DNA of 64,000 bases from a virus, in the IMG/VR virus record IMGVR_UViG_3300035670_009638, positions 1-64,000 of that record. One strand, written 5' to 3'. Positions within the stretch are counted from its first letter, which is position 1, and each line of letters starts with the position of its first letter. The position numbers and the translations under genes are program-made. The notes below the pieces were generated by a model. The model saw only the letters and a program-made list of their open reading frames with translations, did not search any database and was not told the DNA's origin. Positions 41,964 through 60,471 of the stretch are shown one piece after another.

Positions 41964-42377
41964 TTAAACCACCTCTACCATATGTTTTCTAAAATCACCG
42001 TCATTTATAGGCTCACCGAGGCCTTCTCTTTTGGTGTTATATAAATACATATAGCACTCAATCAAAGAGCCATCTGAGGCCTTACAGTGACCTAAAATAC
42101 GATGATAAAGGTTCATATCGTTATTTGGTCCATAGTAACCTTCTAGTCTGTCCAAAAGTTTCATGCTAATATTCAAGTATTCAGGTTTGATTGTAATAAT
42201 CTCACCAGACACTTTTCCTGTTCCTTTTAGCATGCAAGGAAATCTTCCACATTCATGCATGTATAAATCTTTGTCATCAGCTACAGCAGATTCAATGCTT
42301 TCAATTGCCTCTTGGATTAAAATTTTATGATTGCTCATTCCACTCATTAAAGTACCATATACAAAAAATTTATTCAT
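41964..42377 (-). CDS. gamma-glutamylcyclotransferase (AIG2/GGACT family)
   Basis: FVYGTLMSG..NH, VSGE, LDRLEGY motifs. Confidence 0.92.
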   Translation of the reverse strand: MNKFFVYGTLMSGMSNHKILIQEAIESIESAVADDKDLYMHECGRFPCMLKGTGKVSGEIITIKPEYLNISMKLLDRLEGYYGPNNDMNLYHRILGHCKASDGSLIECYMYLYNTKREGLGEPINDGDFRKHMVEVV

Positions 42378-42442
42378 TATTTTTCCTCCTCTTATTTTAA
42401 TCTTAAGATTAAGAACTCCCCTTCTGGGGAGCTCTCTTTTTA

Positions 42443-43198
42443 TTAAGCTAGCTTAGCGATGTATCGTTGGGCTCTTTTGAATTGTTTTACTACCGGTTTA
42501 TTATCTGAAAGACCAACTTCTTCTAGCATTTCATCAAGAGCTTCTTCGTTGTTGCTTGACTGTAATGGAGTCATCTCTTGAATATTTGCTGCTGTTTCAA
42601 CTAACTTGTGTGTGAATTCGATCCATGCAAGAATTTCATTAATATTTGTTGTTCCTTGATGATGTCTGAACTCAATTGTTCCATACTTAACGTATGCTCT
42701 GTTGTTTAAATTGTAATATCTTGAACGGATTGAGTTTTTAAATTCTTCGATATTGGAAGCGCTTTCAACATTTTCCATAATTGGAGCAATTGGACTGCAA
42801 TAAGAACTTATTCTTCTTGATGGATTAATGATTGAGTAAATTGCATTTCTTTCATATTTATTATAAAGTCTGTATAAGTTTTTGATTTGGTTTATGTTGA
42901 AATCGTTGATATCATGATGAACATGTAAACCAGTTTTCTTATTACAACGAACTTTCAACTCTTTTCTTAAAACATGAACTACAGTTTTTAATTCTTCTGT
43001 GTCAGTAAGTGGTGGGCTAACAATCTCCCATCCATTGATTGAAGCATCTGGTTGAACTTTCCATGCATTGTGATTTACTGGGCTTCCGTAACGATCACCT
43101 TCAACATTAATTCCAGCATTTTGTAATGCTTCAATTACCTCATAACGAGATTTACTTGTTGCTACTTCTAATTCTGCTCCAAATTTCATTTGTCTCAT
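42443..43198 (-). CDS. putative amidoligase (COOH-NH2 ligase type 2)
   Basis: FGAELE, DASI..WEIVSP, GLHVH, TIEFRHHQGT motifs. Confidence 0.9.
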   Translation of the reverse strand: MRQMKFGAELEVATSKSRYEVIEALQNAGINVEGDRYGSPVNHNAWKVQPDASINGWEIVSPPLTDTEELKTVVHVLRKELKVRCNKKTGLHVHHDINDFNINQIKNLYRLYNKYERNAIYSIINPSRRISSYCSPIAPIMENVESASNIEEFKNSIRSRYYNLNNRAYVKYGTIEFRHHQGTTNINEILAWIEFTHKLVETAANIQEMTPLQSSNNEEALDEMLEEVGLSDNKPVVKQFKRAQRYIAKLA

Positions 43199-44709: not shown

Positions 44710-45306
44710 TTAGGCGATCTCTAGATATTGTTCGGCAACTACTTTTTGTAATTTCTTCTTAAGTTTATTCACTCTTTGGTTGGCAGCCTGACGAGTGATA
44801 CCATATTTATCAGCGTAATTTTGAACTGAGAAGGATTTTTTGTCGAGGATAACTTTTAGGAGATCTTCTTCTCCAGGTTCAATGCTTTCTTGAATGATGG
44901 CAGTCAATTCTTTGAAAGCAAGGTTGTCCATTGAGTTGTCATCTGTTGCGAACATATCTTCAAGTTTGAGATCGTCGTCTCCAACAGGAGCGTTCATTGA
45001 AACTGTAACACCTTGATTTTTCAAGGAGTATTTATGGTAAGTGGCGTTTCTTACACCTTTTTGAAGTTTGTAATATAGATAAGTTGTGAAGCAATTTCCC
45101 TGAGTTGGTTCATATTGCTCATATGCTCTCCATAATTCTAAATCAAGTTCTTGTCTAAAATCTTCTTCTTCTACTGCGTTGAAGATAAACTTGTTGTTTG
45201 CTCTCTTCATAGCTTTAATGACCATTGGAGTAAATTGTTCTCTTACTTCTTCAAAAGTCATTTCCTTGCTAGTGTTATCAGAAAATAAGATTGTCTTTGT
45301 CATCAT
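44710..45306 (-). CDS. phage RNA polymerase sigma factor (sigma-70 regions 2 and 4)
   Basis: EEDFRQELDLELWRAYEQY...FTTY, SMNAPVG, HTH YADKYGITRQAANQR. Confidence 0.9.
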   Translation of the reverse strand: MMTKTILFSDNTSKEMTFEEVREQFTPMVIKAMKRANNKFIFNAVEEEDFRQELDLELWRAYEQYEPTQGNCFTTYLYYKLQKGVRNATYHKYSLKNQGVTVSMNAPVGDDDLKLEDMFATDDNSMDNLAFKELTAIIQESIEPGEEDLLKVILDKKSFSVQNYADKYGITRQAANQRVNKLKKKLQKVVAEQYLEIA

Positions 45307-48792: not shown

Positions 48793-48854
48793 AGTAGTTG
48801 AGTTCCTCCTATTCAATAATTTTTTAAATAACTTTTTATTTAACTCACATTGTA

Positions 48855-48883
48855 TTTATATCTGTTTAAATAAAAACGTAAAT
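48855..48883 (-). promoter_or_regulatory. class II promoter
   Basis: Repeated 29-bp motif. Confidence 0.75.
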
Positions 48884-52714: not shown

Positions 52715-52750
52715 ATTTTTACCTCATTTCTTTTTATTTCTCACATTGTT

Positions 52751-52779
52751 TTTATATCCGTCCGATTGGAAACGTAAAA
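52751..52779 (-). promoter_or_regulatory. class II promoter of dnaE
   Basis: Repeated 29-bp motif. Confidence 0.7.
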
Positions 52780-53672: not shown

Positions 53673-53748
53673 TAATAACTTTTATAACTTCTATAACGGT
53701 TATAACTAAAAAAGATAGCCGAAAGGCTATCTTCATAACAGTTATAAC
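53673..53748. repeat. 9-bp-period YATAAC array
   Basis: Units at 53673, 53682, 53691, 53700, 53733, 53742. Confidence 0.7.
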
Positions 53749-53751
53749 CCC

Positions 53752-54207
53752 TTAATCTTCAATCTTTTTCTTTTTTCCTTTGAAAATATGAGGCATGCTA
53801 ACAAAAATATTTATATCAACTTTTGAACCAGGAAGATATTTGTTAACAAAATAATTAAAGAATTGAACATCATCTTCAAGATTCAAAAGGTTAGAAGATC
53901 TTTGGAATGCATTGATTTGCTTAACTTTATTGTTTTCATCAAATATGAAATGAATTGTTGAAATACATTCTTCTGAATGATACATAACTTGTCTTTCTGA
54001 AGTTATCCATCCATGTTCATACTTGAATAACAAATGTCTTAGCTGCATTTCAAGTGAAGTATAATATGGTTCATCAGAAGGTGGAAAATCAGTTTTTGTA
54101 ACTGGATTAATCAAGAGGAATGGCTCAAATAGAACCATATCCTCAGTCTCTTTTGAAACTAATAATTCATCAACAACTGGTAGTTCATATTGAAAACTTG
54201 TGAGCAT
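53752..54207 (-). CDS. minimal thymidylate-synthase (ThyA)-fold protein, possible dCMP-modifying enzyme
   Basis: SERQ...ECISTIHF, AFQRSSN..LEDD and SMPHIF align to ThyA / dCMP hydroxymethylase motifs. Confidence 0.6.
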   Translation of the reverse strand: MLTSFQYELPVVDELLVSKETEDMVLFEPFLLINPVTKTDFPPSDEPYYTSLEMQLRHLLFKYEHGWITSERQVMYHSEECISTIHFIFDENNKVKQINAFQRSSNLLNLEDDVQFFNYFVNKYLPGSKVDINIFVSMPHIFKGKKKKIED

Positions 54208-55175
54208 TAAAGATTACCTCCACGAAGTTCTTCCATGTATTTTTTAGATTGAGCAGCAAGTAATTCAAGCTCTTTCTTATACTCAGCAAACATCTTCTGG
54301 AAGATTGTTGGACCTTCTGGAGGATTTGTTCCATTAACTTCCTCACGATATGCTTGATAGATAAAGTCTTTCTCGTTCCATTCGAATTTGTCTGAGTTTT
54401 CTTCAGGGAAGTATAAGTTTGTTGCATGTCCATTACGAGCATTTTTAATGTAATGGAATGATGGCATTTCAAAATCAATAATGTTCAAGTGAGCAATTGG
54501 ATATGCTTTACATACTGCTAACCACATTTGATATGCAATGATGTTATCTGATTTTGGTTGAATTTGTCGGTCAATACGTTGCTTAACAAATCCAAGTAAA
54601 TCTTTAAAGTTACAACTTGCATAATAGAAATTGTCATGGTTTTTATTAAGAATTAATCGAGCATCCATAATTGAAATTTGTTTAGAATCAATCATGTCTT
54701 GATATAACTTTCTGCATTCATAAGTTAATTGTTTATATCGTTCATAGAATTCTGGAGAGTTTTGAATAGCTTCTGGAACTACTGCTGTATGATGGGTTAA
54801 CCAGCGATCTCCAGTACACTGAGCTGAGAATGAGAAAGTTCGATGGCGAATTAAATGAGTTACGTCCTGAACTGAAATACCTTCAATTCGGAAAGTTAAA
54901 CGAATTGTTTCAAGAATAGAAGGTAAAGTTTTGAAAGTGAAAGCTTTCTCGATATCTTCAACTACTTGTTCCATAGAATATTCTTGTCCAGGCTCATCTG
55001 CCCAAGTTGCATTTACATAACCAGGAAGGTAATTAACAATGTTTTGCCATGGAGTATGATCGACTAGGGTAACATTAATATTCTCTAAGTCATTAACAAA
55101 CTCAAAATCTGGTTCTTCACCGAAACGTAATTCCATTGGTAATTTTACAGGTTCAAGATTGTTATTTTTTGGCAT
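54207..55175 (-). CDS. thyX: flavin-dependent thymidylate synthase (ThyX)-like protein, variant active site
   Basis: HLIRHRTFSFSAQC, DARLIL, NFKDLLGFVKQR motifs; start at ATG 55175. Confidence 0.85.
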   Translation of the reverse strand: MPKNNNLEPVKLPMELRFGEEPDFEFVNDLENINVTLVDHTPWQNIVNYLPGYVNATWADEPGQEYSMEQVVEDIEKAFTFKTLPSILETIRLTFRIEGISVQDVTHLIRHRTFSFSAQCTGDRWLTHHTAVVPEAIQNSPEFYERYKQLTYECRKLYQDMIDSKQISIMDARLILNKNHDNFYYASCNFKDLLGFVKQRIDRQIQPKSDNIIAYQMWLAVCKAYPIAHLNIIDFEMPSFHYIKNARNGHATNLYFPEENSDKFEWNEKDFIYQAYREEVNGTNPPEGPTIFQKMFAEYKKELELLAAQSKKYMEELRGGNL

Positions 55176-55238
55176 AATAGAAAACCTCCGATTGATTAAA
55201 TAATTTTTTAAATAAGTTATTAAATAACTCACATTGTA

Positions 55239-55267
55239 TTTATATCTGATCAAATAAAAATGTAAAT
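55239..55267 (-). promoter_or_regulatory. class II promoter
   Basis: Repeated 29-bp motif. Confidence 0.75.
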
Positions 55268-55289
55268 CATTTTTTAAATAATTTTTTAT

Positions 55290-55889
55290 TTAAAACCAAA
55301 TTGTTGTTTTATCTAGGCTAAATCTTTCGCTGTAGTAAGGCTCCTCTGACTTCTTGCCAATTGGAATAAACATGATGGGAACTAGATTTTCTGGAACATC
55401 AAATGAACCTTCAAATTGTTCTCTGTCAAATCCACCAATAATTCCAGTGTTGTAGCCTTTAGATTCGGCTGCATAAACTAATGTCATTGCTGCCAACGGA
55501 GCATTAACAAAAGCATGTTCTAAAGCATCATAGTAATCTTCATAAGCTTTTTCTACTTGTTTCTTTAATTTCGCCTTAACAAAATCATTCATATAACCTT
55601 TTTCGACCAAAGGATTATAAACTTCGTCAAAATTTAGATCAGCATCAATGTCCGCAAGAACTGCCACAACAGCACTAGAATTAATAATTTGATTTTGATA
55701 GTAGGCAATTGGTAGAAGTTGTTCTTTTGATTCTTTACTTTCAAAAACAAAGAACTTCCAATGTTGTAGGTTCCAAGCCGAAGGAGACTTACCTGATAAA
55801 GTTAAAATCTCCTCCAGATCCTCCCTAGGAATCTTAAAATTTGGGTCGAATGAAGTTGTGTTTTTACGATTCAAAATTATCTCTTTCAT
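55290..55889 (-). CDS. nitroreductase-family flavoprotein
   Basis: SPSAWNLQHWKF, IGGFD motifs. Confidence 0.9.
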   Translation of the reverse strand: MKEIILNRKNTTSFDPNFKIPREDLEEILTLSGKSPSAWNLQHWKFFVFESKESKEQLLPIAYYQNQIINSSAVVAVLADIDADLNFDEVYNPLVEKGYMNDFVKAKLKKQVEKAYEDYYDALEHAFVNAPLAAMTLVYAAESKGYNTGIIGGFDREQFEGSFDVPENLVPIMFIPIGKKSEEPYYSERFSLDKTTIWF

Positions 55890-56338
55890 ATCATCTCATC
55901 CATTGCTTTATTTGCTAATTCATCTGCTCTCTCATTTCCAGGTTCACCGGAATGGCCTTTGACTTTAGTGAATTGGATAAATGCAAACTTATTAATCAAA
56001 TCAATAAGTTCAATCCACAATTCTCTGTTTTCAACTGGAGTTTTAGCTGATGTAACCCATCCATTATTCATCCATTTGACATACCATTTTTGGTTGATGC
56101 AATTACATACATAAGCTGAATCAGTTCGTACTTCAACAGGGATATTAAACTTTTTCATAGCTCTGAGGCCTTCAATAGCAGCTTTTAATTCCATTTGATT
56201 ATTAGTTACATTTCTAAAACCTTGATACAATTCTTTGGTGTGTTCTCCGTATTGAAGAACAACACCATAACCTCCAATTGAATTAGTTTTACTATTACCT
56301 CTCGAACCGCCATCAACGTAAATTACAACTCTACTCAT
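55886..56338 (-). CDS. rnhA: ribonuclease HI
   Basis: YVDGGSRGN, TNNQMEL, TDSAY, KVKGHSG..GNERADELA. Confidence 0.95.
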   Translation of the reverse strand: MSRVVIYVDGGSRGNSKTNSIGGYGVVLQYGEHTKELYQGFRNVTNNQMELKAAIEGLRAMKKFNIPVEVRTDSAYVCNCINQKWYVKWMNNGWVTSAKTPVENRELWIELIDLINKFAFIQFTKVKGHSGEPGNERADELANKAMDEMI

Positions 56339-57366
56339 TAAAGAATTCCTCCTTCAATAAGTTCTTTAACAATTTCTGAAACGTGTTTCTCGGTTGTATC
56401 AATTTTGATTTTGTTTTTATATGCAGAATTATCAAAGTAAAATTCCATAACTGCTTTATGATAATCAAAATCTAGTATTTCATGGTTTGTTTCAATACAT
56501 CTTCTTTCTAATTCTTCTGTCGAGCAATCAATATAAATTGCTAAAACACAATCTGATTTTGCAAGTTGGATTTCCATTTCCTTATAAGTTTCTTTTAGAT
56601 CGTCGCTTTTTTCAAAAATATCACAATATGCTTGGAAAGATTCGGGTCCTCTATCCATTGTCATATGTTTATATTTTGTTTGTTTATCAATTTCATTGAT
56701 TAATGTATCTTTACCAGCTCGATCTACAGCAGAAATAACAATTATTTTTGGAGAAGACTCAAGAATATATTCCATTCTAATTCCTTCCAAATGTTTATAT
56801 TTTGAATAAGGAGTTTTATAAGGTTCTCCAGTTCTTAATAGTTCTTTTACTTTTCCTGAACTTAGTCCAAAATTTTCTTTAAAGTATTTGTAAGCTTCTC
56901 CAACAAAATTAAAGAAAATTTGTTTCCCATCAGGCATTATAAGTTTGCATTTCCTTCTTGATGGAGAGGGTTTGCCATACATTCCATTGTTTTTTCCTAA
57001 AACTCTTTCTTTCTGTTCATCTGACCATTTATTTCCGTAATTTGGATTATCTTGTCCCTTATACATTTCAGAGAATTCAATTCTTGTTTTCTCTGAAATT
57101 CTTTCTCCTTCTTTTTTATTAAATCTGGCTTCACCTAAATTATGGTATCTTTTTGTAAGTATTTCTTCGTATTTAAAAGCTATCATCTTATCATCAAATT
57201 CTTTTACAATTTCAATATCAACACTTTCTTTAAGGTAAGGTCGTTGGTGCCAATCGCCATATGCTCTACCACCAGAACCTTTACCAACATAAAGAACTTC
57301 TCCAGTTTCTTTATCTTTGTGGATATAAACATAATGTTTAGTAGTAATTGAGATTTGTTTAGTCAT
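56338..57366 (-). CDS. GIY-YIG endonuclease fused to a thymidylate-kinase-like P-loop domain
   Basis: YVY..LYVGKGSGGR N-terminus; IIVISAVDRAGKDT and MDRG C-terminal domain. Confidence 0.8.
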   Translation of the reverse strand: MTKQISITTKHYVYIHKDKETGEVLYVGKGSGGRAYGDWHQRPYLKESVDIEIVKEFDDKMIAFKYEEILTKRYHNLGEARFNKKEGERISEKTRIEFSEMYKGQDNPNYGNKWSDEQKERVLGKNNGMYGKPSPSRRKCKLIMPDGKQIFFNFVGEAYKYFKENFGLSSGKVKELLRTGEPYKTPYSKYKHLEGIRMEYILESSPKIIVISAVDRAGKDTLINEIDKQTKYKHMTMDRGPESFQAYCDIFEKSDDLKETYKEMEIQLAKSDCVLAIYIDCSTEELERRCIETNHEILDFDYHKAVMEFYFDNSAYKNKIKIDTTEKHVSEIVKELIEGGIL

Positions 57367-57404
57367 AACTCTTATAACCTCCGATTTATTTATTTCTCAT
57401 AACT

Positions 57405-57433
57405 TTTATATCTGTTATGACTGAAACGTAAAT
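57405..57433 (-). promoter_or_regulatory. class II promoter overlapping a 9-bp-period array
   Basis: Repeated 29-bp motif. Confidence 0.75.
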
Positions 57434-57592
57434 CGAATAGGTTAATAAAATTTCAATTTTATAATAAAAAATGAGCTCAGTTTTCATCAAACTCACTACG
57501 TTAAGACTATTAAGTTGGTTTATATGTAATAAAATTTGGGCATGATATAATATATCCTAAATAGCAAAAAATAAAGCAGAGACAAACTCTGC

Positions 57593-58972
57593 TTATATAA
57601 CTTCTCTAATTGCTTTACCAGATTTACCAGTAAAAATAGATATTTTATTTTCTTCAATAGCTCCAGGAACCATAGGAATTAAATTGCCTTCTTCATACAG
57701 CTCCACAAACTTTTCTGCTTTTGAAATAGATTTTGTAAGATACTCAACAAGTTCAAAATCGCTTTCGAACTTATAAGGATCTTTTGTAATGTTGAATAGT
57801 TGGGACATAAGCTTAGGTAGAACAACAGAATTATCATATTCATTCATTAATACATTGAATGCTGTGTCTCGATATAACTGTTGTAACTCTGGATTTTCAG
57901 CAACTCGTTTCATTTCTTGAATCGCATCATGAGGATTATCTTCATCCATATAAATAGCAAAATTCGGAATATCGATATATCTTACTTCATCTACAGTTTT
58001 ACATTCTTCTGCCCATTCTTTGTCTACAACTAAAATAGCTCCCGCACAAATGGCTTCTTGCATTGTATATTCTAATCGATCACCATAGAAGGACTTATCA
58101 ATTCCTGTTTTGAACTTGAAAAGAGTACAAGCGAATAAGCTTTGATTAAATTTGTTCAGGACTTCTTCTCGTTCAATTCTTCCGTATGTTGGAACAATAG
58201 GATTTTCATTCTTAGGAAGAGTAGGCTGCAATAAATTATCGCAGTTTGGATGACTTAGGATTTGTTGCTTACAACCAATTCCTGTGTCCATTCCATAAAT
58301 AACCGGCTGTATTCCAGCTTCGTAAACTGCCTCTGAAATATCTAAAAGTCGTCTTGGACCCTTATACAATACAAATCTACCAATATAGGTTAGATTGTTT
58401 TCACGTTTAGAATTCTTATAGAAGTGCTGAAATCTTTTTACGTCAGTCCATAAATGCATTGGGAAAGCTCTGTCTCTTTTAGATGGAAGTTTCTTCACTA
58501 AAGAATTCATATAGTAACTTTCCGAAGAATGGTTATAAACCGCATCAGACTCGTTTATATAAGACCAACAGAATGGAGTTTCTTTTATTGCTTTGACAAA
58601 AGATGTATGTTGCATTTGAACTTTAACTGGAGTAATTTTTTTATACATCTTATGAAACTCAAGAACATCTTCTTTTTTAAGGCCACTATGAGGTTTCGCT
58701 GGGTTGATCAGAATTACTAAATCATACTTTTCGTTGATTTCATTAGTAATTTCATCGATATTCTCTCTTGAGAAAATTGTGTGTTCATGGATATATCCAT
58801 CTTTATATTCTGGCTTTTTCCTTTTCCATGGAGCATGGTAGTAGTAAGTATGGAATTCTACATCATTTTTTAATCCCCAACGAAACATTTCCTCGACTGA
58901 GGTTGATTCACCATCAATCAGCCGAGGGTAACCACGAAGTATAGCGACTTTTTTACCAGAATAATTGTTCAT
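57593..58972 (-). CDS. DNA alpha-glucosyltransferase-like GT-B glycosyltransferase
   Basis: Motifs colinear with T4 AGT as recalled: VQMQH, DAVYNHS, YIGRFVLYKG, LEYTMQE..AGAILV, MDEDN. Confidence 0.8.
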   Translation of the reverse strand: MNNYSGKKVAILRGYPRLIDGESTSVEEMFRWGLKNDVEFHTYYYHAPWKRKKPEYKDGYIHEHTIFSRENIDEITNEINEKYDLVILINPAKPHSGLKKEDVLEFHKMYKKITPVKVQMQHTSFVKAIKETPFCWSYINESDAVYNHSSESYYMNSLVKKLPSKRDRAFPMHLWTDVKRFQHFYKNSKRENNLTYIGRFVLYKGPRRLLDISEAVYEAGIQPVIYGMDTGIGCKQQILSHPNCDNLLQPTLPKNENPIVPTYGRIEREEVLNKFNQSLFACTLFKFKTGIDKSFYGDRLEYTMQEAICAGAILVVDKEWAEECKTVDEVRYIDIPNFAIYMDEDNPHDAIQEMKRVAENPELQQLYRDTAFNVLMNEYDNSVVLPKLMSQLFNITKDPYKFESDFELVEYLTKSISKAEKFVELYEEGNLIPMVPGAIEENKISIFTGKSGKAIREVI

Positions 58973-58986
58973 ATTTAATTCCTCCA

Positions 58987-59547
58987 TTATTTAGATTCCT
59001 CAGTAATTTTATCTTCAAGTTTTTGAATTAAACGAGCAACTCTTTCTTGAGCCCCTTCATTAATATCTCTCATTTGGGGTGTTTGATTGCCTAAACTAAT
59101 TTCACGATTAGAGTATTGAAGGACTGAAACTGTATCAGCTAATTTAGTGACCAAGTAAGGAATTGTCTCTTGCTTTTCTTCTTCAATGAATTTCTTGTAT
59201 GAATCCAAGTATTCTGGCATATTTTGTTCCAAAGCAATTACTTCAGCTTGCTCACAAGCTTCTCTTAATGCAGGATTATTTACTTTTGTGTCATATGGAA
59301 TATCTCCAACCATTAGTTCTGGAATATCATGAACTGTTGCAAATTCTAAAGCTTTATATTTAATTTCATCACTTAAGTTGAACATTTTAACAATTTTTAA
59401 GACAGTTGTAATTACATAAAACGAATGTTCGGCAACATTTTCATGTTTAATCTTTGGTCTGTTATTGTATCGAATAATCTCACCAAGACCTAAAATTGTA
59501 GTATCACCTAACGTACGAACTTTACCACGATTGAAATATCCTGACAT
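58987..59547 (-). CDS. HD-domain deoxynucleotide hydrolase (YfbR/DatZ-like)
   Basis: IRY..ENVAEHSFYV, HDIPE..GDIP..K, KLAD motifs. Confidence 0.9.
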   Translation of the reverse strand: MSGYFNRGKVRTLGDTTILGLGEIIRYNNRPKIKHENVAEHSFYVITTVLKIVKMFNLSDEIKYKALEFATVHDIPELMVGDIPYDTKVNNPALREACEQAEVIALEQNMPEYLDSYKKFIEEEKQETIPYLVTKLADTVSVLQYSNREISLGNQTPQMRDINEGAQERVARLIQKLEDKITEESK

Positions 59548-59602
59548 ATAGCATTCCTCCGATTGATTTAGTAATTGGGTGGAAGGGATTAAACCCTTCC
59601 GT

Positions 59603-59869
59603 TTAAACTAATCCTCTCTTTTCAAAAATTGAACGAAGTTTTGTTTGGCCAACACCACGAACTTTTTCGATTTCATTACCTTCATCATCAACAAGAACAA
59701 ATGTTGGAGATTACATAACTCCGTATTTTACAGCCAATTCATTAGCTCGATCATCGTCATTAAATAGAATAAGAGTTTCATCTGGTTGAGTCTTTAATTC
59801 TTCTTTTATAAATGAATCTGCCATTTTACAAGGTGTGCAGTTATTTTGTTTAAACATTAGTAATTTCAT
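59603..59869 (-). pseudogene. thioredoxin / NrdH-like protein interrupted by an in-frame TAA
   Basis: MKLLMFKQNNCTPCK...KYGVM*SPTFVLVDDEGNEIEK; stop at 59711-59713. Confidence 0.85.
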
Positions 59870-59923
59870 AGAAGTTCCTCCAATAAAATATTAAATAAAG
59901 TATTATTTAATTTATTATTGAAA

Positions 59924-60382
59924 TTATTCAATAAGACCTTCATAATAAATTTCTTCACCAAGAATTGCTGCTTCAAGTTCTTCGACTGTTCGACAGGCTG
60001 CAACTCCAGACTCAGCTAACATCAAGTTAAACATGCCATCTTTTCCAAGAGTAAAAGCAACATAAATTACTGGAATTTTTGAAGCAAAAGCATGACCAGC
60101 TTCAAAAATAGTTCCCATATCTTTTCCATCTGTAATAGCAATTAGGAACTCAGCTCCTTCAATTCCTTTAACATTCATTTCGAAAGATTTCTTACGAACT
60201 TCTGGAGAAGAAATAGGACCGATAGCTGACTGTTTTCGTGGTGAAAAATATGTGAATCCATGTTTTTCTAGTAATGTTTCTACTAAAGCAACACGAGTGA
60301 TTTGATCTGGATTAAAGAACGGTGCTGCAATATAAACATGATGTTTCTTTCCTTCTTTTAATGAACGAGTAGTTTGAGTCAT
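59924..60382 (-). CDS. nucleoside 2-deoxyribosyltransferase / nucleotide N-hydrolase family protein
   Basis: VYIAAPFF, FSPR, DMGTIFEAG, NLML motifs. Confidence 0.88.
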   Translation of the reverse strand: MTQTTRSLKEGKKHHVYIAAPFFNPDQITRVALVETLLEKHGFTYFSPRKQSAIGPISSPEVRKKSFEMNVKGIEGAEFLIAITDGKDMGTIFEAGHAFASKIPVIYVAFTLGKDGMFNLMLAESGVAACRTVEELEAAILGEEIYYEGLIE

Positions 60383-60442
60383 GATTTATTTCCTCCGATT
60401 TCATATTTTTATTTCGTGAGTATTTATATCTCTCACATTGTA

Positions 60443-60471
60443 TTTATATCTGCTACTTGAAAAATGTAAAT
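60443..60471 (-). promoter_or_regulatory. class II promoter heading the modification cluster
   Basis: Repeated 29-bp motif. Confidence 0.75.

Follow-up and report, generated by a model that had tools for sequence, protein, structure and literature searches.

Positions 53,752 to 60,471 of IMG/VR virus record IMGVR_UViG_3300035670_009638 raise the question of whether one phage gene cluster specifies an unusual, glycosylated DNA base and, if so, which base that would be. An initial annotation had proposed such a base-modification pathway in a Bacillaceae siphophage, analogous to that of T4. The stretch analyzed here (the window, 64,000 nucleotides) comprises the first 64 kb of an 82.5-kb phage genome that is about 98% complete. 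Over the cluster it shares 87% DNA identity with Geobacillus phage GR1 (OK896991), a 79-kb phage whose isolation host was G. stearothermophilus ATCC 10149. The nine genes that had been named (NDT-family protein, thioredoxin, HD hydrolase, glycosyltransferase, kinase, RNase H, nitroreductase, ThyX-like protein and minimal ThyA-fold protein) were all located by Pfam, PHROG and translation, and all lie on the minus strand (Table 1).

The cassette probably makes a non-canonical glycosylated pyrimidine in DNA. The chance that this base is specifically a glycosyl-5-hydroxycytosine is put at about even. By a slight preference, the cluster as a whole is read as a cassette by which a GR1-like Bacillaceae siphophage hypermodifies its DNA, with 5-hydroxy-dC synthesized before replication and O-glycosylated once in DNA.

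The minimal ThyA-fold protein

The evidence begins with a protein of 151 aa (here mini-ThyA), for which no Pfam match was obtained and to which PHROGs assigned an unnamed family alone. A search of 1.84 billion representatives returned 42 relatives. The AlphaFold2 (AF2) model had a predicted local distance difference test score (pLDDT) of 93, and its top Foldseek match was 9IQU, the dCMP hydroxylase AfhB of phage HY126; the good matches were all ThyA folds, and a BFVD search agreed. With VIA-align the Z-scores were 10.0 for MilA, 9.9 for 9IQU (root mean square deviation, rmsd, 4.0; 145 residues aligned) and 9.7 for 9IQC. The minimal ThyA fold suggested beforehand was recovered. Because about 140 of the 151 residues align along the entire ThyA chain, the modelled protein is regarded as a stripped ThyA core and not as a fragment.

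The residue register was taken from four alignments, with T4 gp42, phage G gp319, the canonical ThyA of the same phage and RB69 gp48, three of them made by hhalign. In all four, C81 corresponded to C146, R103-S104 to R166-S167, N106 to D169 and D113 to N177 (E. coli ThyA numbering). N106 and D113 align to D171 and D179 of T4 gp42 and to the RSQN...D of RB69 gp48, and H140 aligns to the His of the GDxH motif of ThyA. Within the ThyA family the best and longest hhalign comparison was with RB69 gp48 (E 7e-4, 76 columns). Conservation was complete among 29 family members for the Cys, the Arg-Ser pair and the Asp at the N177 position (29/29 each), and the Asn at the D169 position was found in 24 of them.

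These residues have been given a meaning by Lee et al. (NAR 2026; PMC13326640), who found that dCMP is converted to 5-hydroxy-dCMP (5hodCMP), with molecular oxygen and flavin, by RB69 gp48, by DLP3 gp80 and by nine other, diverse homologues. In that work D169N was diagnostic of 5hodCMP synthases and N177D led to a preference for dCMP; a cognate dNMP kinase was required for efficient incorporation, after which the hydroxyl was glycosylated in DNA (PMC13326640). Mini-ThyA has both the cytosine-type Asp and the Asn of the 5hodCMP synthases, in keeping with the earlier suggestion that the base may not be standard 5-hydroxymethylcytosine (5hmC). On its modelled fold and residues it is a candidate flavin-dependent dCMP 5-hydroxylase, and the loss of its folate-side parts is more in line with dependence on flavin than on folate.

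The glycosyltransferase and its relatives in phage G

A full-length GT-B glycosyltransferase (GT) resembling the alpha-glucosyltransferase (AGT) of T4 had been named, and this held. A single-sequence phmmer search of the PDB with the GT gave no matches, and a family profile was needed to reach T4 AGT. The profile of 14 GT homologues matched T4 AGT (1Y6F/1XV5) over its full length at E 7e-20, with query residues 28-392 on chain residues 25-401. G203, R204, K209, E306 and E311 of the GT are invariant in the homologue alignment and match the GR..K and LEYTHLE residues of T4 AGT; the sugar-nucleotide binding residues of the AGT family (G-R...K and the acidic pair of LEY..E) are present. One homologue, P0023, carries Pfam AGT (PF11440). 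Profile and residues together identify the GT as genuinely homologous to T4 AGT.

In tblastn the GT recovered a-gt genes from T4-like phages as well as two genes from Bacillus phage G (gp313, 34%). In phage G (NC_023719, 219845-239140) the AGT-like gp313 and gp306 lie near gp319; this homologue of ThyA shows the motifs of T4-type dCMP hydroxymethylases (PC...MRSND...D). The same neighborhood holds a sugar-1-phosphate nucleotidyltransferase, a gene resembling dCMP deaminase and a kinase, gp315, that is extended at its C terminus. This gene set suggests glucosyl-hmC-like DNA in that giant phage, and the GT clade is linked to modified cytosine because its phage G members adjoin the T4-type hydroxymethylase. 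From gene context, that is, from the ThyA-fold enzyme in the cassette and the phage G neighbors, the acceptor of the GT is predicted to be a hydroxylated pyrimidine in duplex DNA, with UDP-glucose as the presumed donor.

The kinase and the cassette in related phages

The TMK-like kinase of the initial annotation is present as a protein of 145 aa. The 342-aa open reading frame (ORF) assigned to it proved to be a fusion, in which a GIY-YIG/NUMOD3 homing endonuclease continues in frame, uninterrupted by a stop codon, into the kinase. The kinase domain is similar to nucleotide kinases (YorR, TMK, AK). Kinase::mini-ThyA fusions of 276-301 aa occur in other phages with the TMK-like P-loop domain N-terminal; this domain belongs to the same family as the 145-aa kinase and matches YorR of SPbeta (2AXP, E 1.6e-11). 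Because both domains are fused in those phages, the kinase and the product of mini-ThyA are taken to be linked.

Conservation of the neighborhood had been proposed as a check on the pathway. It was found in L007, a diverged 64.7-kb viral contig (21% GC over the fetched stretch), in which the NDT, HD, AGT, kinase, ThyX-like and mini-ThyA genes are contiguous and form a six-gene cassette with 38-56% protein identity to the window. In a second locus, L012, a 262-aa gene of no assigned family occupies the AGT slot, and a third, L028, has a kinase::mini-ThyA fusion and no AGT. In the GR1 group and in L007, mini-ThyA forms with Asn at the D169 position have an AGT-like gene next to them; for the Asp forms encountered, no AGT-like gene was found within the fetched flanks. 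A constant core combined with a variable decorating enzyme is typical of hypermodification clusters.

The proposed pathway

In the first step mini-ThyA would activate dCMP through its catalytic Cys, and reduced flavin with O2 would then give 5-hydroxy-dCMP. The reduced flavin may be supplied by the nitroreductase-family flavoprotein or by the ThyX-like flavoprotein. The former is by sequence a candidate NAD(P)H:flavin reductase, and its score against the NfsB-like NCBIfam model was below the cut-off. The small P-loop kinase would phosphorylate the modified dNMP, and host NDP kinase and the phage DnaE would insert the modified nucleotide in place of dC. In the polymer, the new hydroxyl would receive a hexose through the T4-AGT-family GT. 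The nucleotide pool would be reshaped by the all-alpha NTP pyrophosphatase, the HD phosphohydrolase and the NDT-family enzyme, which would either feed dCMP or remove a canonical nucleotide. The T4-like sequence of modified nucleotide, kinase and AGT that had been envisaged from the start is supported by homology, fold and gene context.

A number of observations weigh against this pathway. The sequence links of mini-ThyA to the ThyA family are each weak (E 0.33 to 7e-4), and the case is made by the fold together with the consistent register. At 151 aa the protein is about 65 residues shorter than any characterized 5hodCMP synthase (217-238 aa), and the insertions and folate/flavin-side helices of those enzymes are missing. 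The diagnostic Asn is not universal: Asp or Glu replaces it in 4 of the 29 family members, and Asp is found at this position in half of the kinase fusions and in the forms of about 200 aa that lie 3' of ThyX-like genes in other phages. The nitroreductase gene is missing from L007, L012 and L028 and is confined to the closest relatives. To our knowledge T4 AGT is active on 5hmC only, and its use on 5-hydroxycytosine (5hoC) is an extrapolation. Finally, GATC was under-represented in the whole genome relative to a Markov expectation (observed/expected 0.57, z about -7), as were CATG (0.67) and GTAC (0.75), and persisting avoidance of GATC and CATG is less expected if every C is shielded at all times. 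As an indirect test of C shielding, palindrome avoidance is ambiguous, because an unmodified lysogenic stage would yield the same result.

Glucosyl-5hmC as in T4 is the alternative that survives best, and it is considered unlikely. Mini-ThyA would then be a dCMP hydroxymethylase drawing its one-carbon unit from folate or from a flavin-methylene intermediate of the ThyX-like protein, and the AGT homologue would glucosylate 5hmC, the base on which its characterized T4 relative acts and the one expected where its phage G homologues adjoin a T4-type hydroxymethylase. Many family members keep the Asp of a hydroxymethylase at the D169 position; this protein has the Asn found in all verified 5hodCMP synthases (PMC13326640). 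A CMP hydroxymethylase, MilA, is the top VIA match, tied with AfhB, but the 151-aa protein lacks the greater part of the folate-binding portion of ThyA. Relative to gp42 (246 aa) it is shorter by about 95 residues, Asn106 replaces Asp171, and neither the Asp nor the folate-binding N-terminal part of T4-type dCMP hydroxymethylases was found in it. The ThyX-like protein is a conceivable methylene source by position, in that the mini-ThyA gene lies directly 3' of the ThyX-like gene in 15 of 57 further IMG/VR loci (23 lineages at 80% identity) and overlaps it in the window; no hand-over of methylene between ThyA and ThyX is known.

The ThyX-like protein and its virus-only module

The variant ThyX of the initial annotation was confirmed as a ThyX fold with an altered motif. 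Its start is most likely the ATG at 55175 (322 aa) and not the TTG at 55253. The AF2 model (pLDDT 83) aligned to Mycobacterium tuberculosis ThyX with a Z-score of 15.7 and an rmsd of 3.0 over 211 residues. Against the equivalog NCBIfam TIGR02170 the protein scored 46.3 bits, below the cut-off of 87.9. When compared by hhalign with canonical phage ThyX, the motif RHR-X7-S-x-R-Y was found to be changed, with Cys120 for Ser88, Gly122 for Arg90 and Asp123 for Tyr91; Cys120 is invariant in the family, and RHR and the two distal arginines (equivalents of Arg147 and Arg174) are kept.

More than 870 relatives were counted at about 50% identity, mostly viral. Cellular occurrence amounted to 3 contigs from metagenome-assembled genomes (MAGs) among 185,579 species genomes, and the only cultured phage with the gene is GR1. 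In the 23 lineages the ThyX-like gene was always near an NDT-like gene (23/23). It was also near an all-alpha NTP pyrophosphatase of cluster c2 in 19/23, DnaE in 19/23, an HD enzyme in 16/23, a mini-ThyA-like gene in 13/23 and a dUTPase_2-NT5C fusion in 6/23. The mini-ThyA-like gene usually begins between -43 and +113 nt from the ThyX-like stop codon. AGT was found in the GR1 group and L007 only. Of the two atypical synthases that had been placed in the modifying step, mini-ThyA stands by its fold and residues, whereas the ThyX-like, NDT and HD genes are part of a much wider virus-only module, in most cases without an AGT, and may therefore lie outside the glycosylation route as such.

The ThyX-like enzyme is not the thymidylate synthase of this phage: it is not needed for dTMP because a bona fide ThyA and a thymidine kinase are encoded. 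The canonical ThyA, which lies outside the window, scored 131.9 bits with TIGR03284 (cut-off 108.35), keeps L143, C146, D169 and N177, and has the motifs NLPPC and QRSND....N; the GR1 record has no annotation for this gene. This phage therefore carries genes for three different C5-pyrimidine synthase folds (mini-ThyA, ThyX-like and canonical ThyA). The ThyX-like protein may donate flavin to mini-ThyA, act as a C5 synthase in its own right or work together with the NDT-like protein. Complex prediction for the ThyX-like and 151-aa proteins gave a score of 0.00, which, run without controls, speaks neither for nor against binding.

The NDT-family protein had been described as an N-hydrolase. It matched the PDB NDT (nucleoside deoxyribosyltransferase) 6EVS at E 3e-8, and the alignment with 6EVS/1S2D keeps 'GTIFEAG' with the catalytic Glu; by sequence it would be either a nucleoside deoxyribosyltransferase or a dNMP N-hydrolase. 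A second NDT-like gene (160 aa; genome 73087-73569) lies outside the window; in GR1 the corresponding gene bears the annotation nucleoside 2-deoxyribosyltransferase and adjoins a PQ-loop protein. The HD protein matched the PHROG 'dATP triphosphohydrolase' (E 1e-37) and, in the PDB, YfbR and OxsA-like proteins. In Z-genome phages NDT-like and YfbR-like relatives remove dAMP and dATP (PMC12884076), and it is because these relatives clear canonical nucleotides that a pool-clearing role is proposed here. A Z-genome (2-aminoadenine) for this phage was considered and rejected: an adenylosuccinate-synthetase/PurZ match was absent from its own genome, and the control was found in 14 of 14 genomes. One of the 57 loci, and only one, has in the contig with the ThyX-like gene a 368-aa PurA/PurZ-like protein with a GDEGKGK motif (L017:18737-19843). 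This contig may come from a Z-genome phage in which the ThyX-like/NDT module is present as well.

The module also invites a thymine-side reading, which is judged improbable. In this case the ThyX-like enzyme would make 5-hydroxymethyl-dUMP or another 5-substituted dUMP, the NDT, HD and all-alpha NTPase enzymes would remove dTTP and dTMP, and the GT would glycosylate hydroxymethyluracil (hmU) as in base J or SP-15. The full ThyX fold with RHR and both distal arginines is compatible with this, and NDT, nucleotidase and all-alpha NTPase accompany the ThyX-like gene in nearly all lineages. As a thymidylate synthase the ThyX-like protein is redundant here and in 12 loci with canonical ThyX; this co-occurrence was rejected as an argument, the 12 loci coming from 2 of the 23 lineages after de-duplication, and the canonical ThyA of this genome is the stronger one. 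Yersinia phage YerA41 and Cobetia phage Carin-5 have heavily hypermodified thymidine. They are among the few cultured phages with relatives of the NDT-like protein (YerA41, MW570730 41701-42090; Carin-5, PV155638 7186-7578), and the YerA41 match falls inside a gene annotated as mannosyltransferase. Set against this, the phage makes dTMP with its canonical ThyA and thymidine kinase, the cytosine-type Asp of mini-ThyA is invariant in its family, and the GT is found in few ThyX-like lineages. On thymidine hypermodification through a 5-hmdU DNA kinase (5-HMUDK) and an aGPT-Pplase, searches by tblastn with the kinase and the 151-aa protein, made without a 5-HMUDK profile, matched only GR1 and one unannotated faecal phage contig, with no homologue in the known T-hypermodifying phages.

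That the ThyX-like protein is the founding member of an enzyme family confined to viruses, with a chemistry that is not dTMP synthesis, is held tentatively and is on balance doubtful. The idea has two forms. In one, the ThyX-like protein would be the flavin or flavin-methylene partner of mini-ThyA in a two-component pyrimidine C5 oxygenase/alkylase; in the other, the ThyX-like and NDT-like proteins would make a 5-substituted pyrimidine, the base being moved onto deoxyribose 5-phosphate and the canonical dNMP destroyed. If either were true, a new route to non-canonical DNA would extend over at least 23 phage lineages.

An ordinary salvage or pool-rebalancing set of a 32% GC phage, with no base replaced and with the GT acting on a non-DNA acceptor or on DNA in part, would accommodate the AT-rich genome, the presence of common phage nucleotide-metabolism genes (NDT, nucleotidases, thymidine kinase, ThyA, ribonucleotide reductase (RNR), Gmk), the persisting GATC and CATG avoidance, a broken thioredoxin gene and the invasion of the cluster by two homing endonucleases, but there is little chance of it, given that the GT clade is tied to DNA by its sole characterized member and by its phage G neighbors, that three C5-pyrimidine synthase folds in an 82-kb phage are hard to explain by salvage, that one pathway is indicated both by the kinase::mini-ThyA fusions and by the conservation of the six-gene cassette in a highly diverged phage, and that the ThyX-like family is nearly absent from cellular genomes.

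Cluster layout and genome setting

The 'class II promoters' of the initial annotation are real as a repeated motif. TTTACRTTT-N9-13-GATATAAAWRYWATGWGA matches exactly at five places in the window, where 0 would be expected by chance; every copy is on the minus strand, and three fall inside the cluster. One copy each stands in front of the genes for the NDT-family protein, the endonuclease-kinase, the ThyX-like protein, DnaE and the all-alpha NTPase, and the ribosome-binding site context AATCGGAGG recurs after the motif. The motif is probably recognized by the sigma factor that the phage itself encodes (44710-45306). The earlier idea that expression confined to the lytic cycle would leave a prophage unmodified is compatible with these shared, phage-specific promoters and with the presence of integrase and partition genes.

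Table 1. Features of the cluster and its surroundings (window positions unless stated otherwise)
Feature	Position	Strand	Evidence
Promoter-like motif, 5' of NDT gene	60433-60470	-	Exact motif match
NDT-family protein, 152 aa	59924-60382	-	Pfam Nuc_deoxyrib_tr E 4e-14
Thioredoxin-like gene, interrupted	59603-59869	-	Weak Pfam Thioredoxin match, 52-aa N-terminal piece (59711-59869)
HD-domain YfbR-like deoxynucleotide phosphohydrolase, 186 aa	58987-59547	-	Pfam YfbR-like E 3e-19
AGT-family GT-B, 464 aa	57593-58987	-	PHROG 2888 alpha-glucosyltransferase E 7e-51; T4 AGT profile E 7e-20
Terminator-like hairpin 3' of GT gene	57574-57594	-	
Promoter-like motif, second cluster copy	57395-57432	-	Exact motif match
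GIY-YIG/NUMOD3 homing endonuclease	56776-57366	-	Translation: GIY-YIG motif and NUMOD3
Small P-loop (d)NMP-kinase-like protein, 145 aa	56338-56775	-	PHROG thymidylate kinase E 1e-9
RNase H, 150 aa	55886-56338	-	Pfam RNase_H E 2e-34
Nitroreductase-family flavoprotein, 199 aa	55290-55889	-	Pfam Nitroreductase E 1e-22
Promoter-like motif, 5' of ThyX-like gene	55229-55266	-	Exact motif match
ThyX-like flavoprotein, 322 aa	54207-55175	-	Pfam Thy1 E 8e-18
Minimal ThyA-fold protein, 151 aa	53752-54207	-	AF2 model, Foldseek, VIA
Terminator-like hairpin 3' of mini-ThyA gene	53711-53734	-	
NUMOD3-type homing endonuclease, second, 263 aa	52805-53596	-	Between mini-ThyA gene and DnaE
Promoter-like motif, 5' of DnaE	52741-52778	-	Exact motif match
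DnaE-type polymerase, 1263 aa	48923-52714	-	GR1 annotation, 93% identity to GR1
Promoter-like motif, 5' of all-alpha NTPase	48845-48882	-	Exact motif match
All-alpha dUTPase_2/MazG-like NTP pyrophosphatase, 129 aa	48427-48816	-	Pfam dUTPase_2 E 1.4e-9
Canonical ThyA, 275 aa	Genome 76012-76839 (L073:1468-2295), outside window	-	Pfam E 4.5e-64

The thioredoxin gene that had been listed is present and is not intact. An in-frame TAA stands at codon 53 (59711-59713), where alignment to the intact GR1 gene shows CAA; this may be a pseudogene, a sequencing error or a gene for a truncated 52-aa CxxC peptide. The GIY-YIG endonuclease is absent at this site in GR1 and present in loci L005 and L008. The kinase is 54% identical to that of GR1, the flanking genes 88-96%, and this divergence suggests an allele replacement linked to the endonuclease. 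At the site of the second endonuclease GR1 has a 228-nt ORF only. RNase H probably serves replication, not modification, and is missing from the compact cassette of L007. Among the genes said to lie nearby, the all-alpha NTPase (Pfam dUTPase_2), Gmk and DnaE were found; the 'NUDIX' gene is so named in the GR1 record alone and gave no Pfam match.

GC content in the window is 30-35%. GR1 and this phage have in common tyrosine recombinases, an actin-like partition protein, an own sigma factor and a DnaE-type polymerase, as well as RNR, thymidine kinase, amidoligase and gamma-glutamylcyclotransferase. The amidoligase gene (Pfam Amidoligase_2, E 8e-27) adjoins the gamma-glutamylcyclotransferase-like gene (GGACT, E 2e-20) at 41964-43198 on the minus strand. 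Amidoligases have been listed among the genes co-associated with thymidine-hypermodification clusters (Lee et al. 2021).

Significance and comparison with known systems

The first descriptions of DNA containing glycosyl-5-hydroxycytosine date from 2025-2026 and concern myoviruses that infect Gram-negative hosts. The type of pathway is known since then, so the cassette is not unprecedented. If the hydroxycytosine reading is true, such DNA reaches siphophages of Gram-positive thermophiles that carry integrase and partition genes, and a hydroxylase can shrink to a 151-residue ThyA core. The latter bears on the switch of this family from folate to flavin, which the 2026 authors left open (PMC13326640). 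New, if the reading holds, would be the host range, the phage type, the minimal enzyme, the AGT-type transferase and the linked ThyX-like/NDT module, which is the least understood part. The work also exposes a large, almost only viral ThyX-like family that fails the ThyX signature and is always accompanied by an NDT-like gene. Cultures exist of both GR1 and its host, G. stearothermophilus ATCC 10149, and new DNA glycosyltransferases and thermostable enzymes for nucleotide modification are of use as reagents.

The closest known system is compared first. The glycosyl-5-hydroxycytosine pathway (RB69, DLP3, HY126 AfhB, RL38J1; PMC13326640; 9IQU, 9IQC) has the same Cys, Asn and Asp in its ThyA-fold enzyme, and in both systems a dedicated dNMP kinase is present and the genes cluster beside a DNA polymerase. 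O-glycosylation is post-replicative there and is predicted here from the genes. The ThyA-fold enzyme has 217-238 aa there and 151 here, where it is split from the YorR-like mini kinase to which it is fused in relatives. The transferases there are arabinosyltransferases, whereas the GT here is of the T4 AGT family and genes for NDP-arabinose are absent. The present phage, a siphophage that carries an integrase and a partition gene of the plasmid type, infects a Gram-positive thermophile, and its cassette is in tight linkage with genes for a ThyX-like flavoprotein and an NDT-like protein.

The glucosyl-hmC system of T4 (gp42, gp1 kinase, gp56 dCTPase, AGT and beta-glucosyltransferase, BGT) follows the same logic of all-alpha NTPase, ThyA-fold modifier, kinase and AGT. 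The modifier here differs in having no folate-binding part and Asn for Asp171 of gp42; there is no BGT, and the polymerase is of the DnaE type.

With ThyX and PolB (UMP/dUMP methylase, 4P5A) the ThyX-like protein shares the complete fold, RHR and the distal arginines, and PolB was its top PDB phmmer match. It differs by N- and C-terminal extensions, by the Cys, Gly and Asp changes in the motif and by its score below the cut-off. Its occurrence differs too, being almost only viral, always near an NDT-like gene and alongside a canonical ThyA or ThyX. The clearing set of Z-genome phages (DmtZ, an NDT-like dAMP hydrolase; DatZ, an HD enzyme; MazZ; PMC12884076) consists of the same enzyme classes, likewise clustered with a synthase and a polymerase. 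In the present phage there is no PurZ, and the synthase is of the pyrimidine type.

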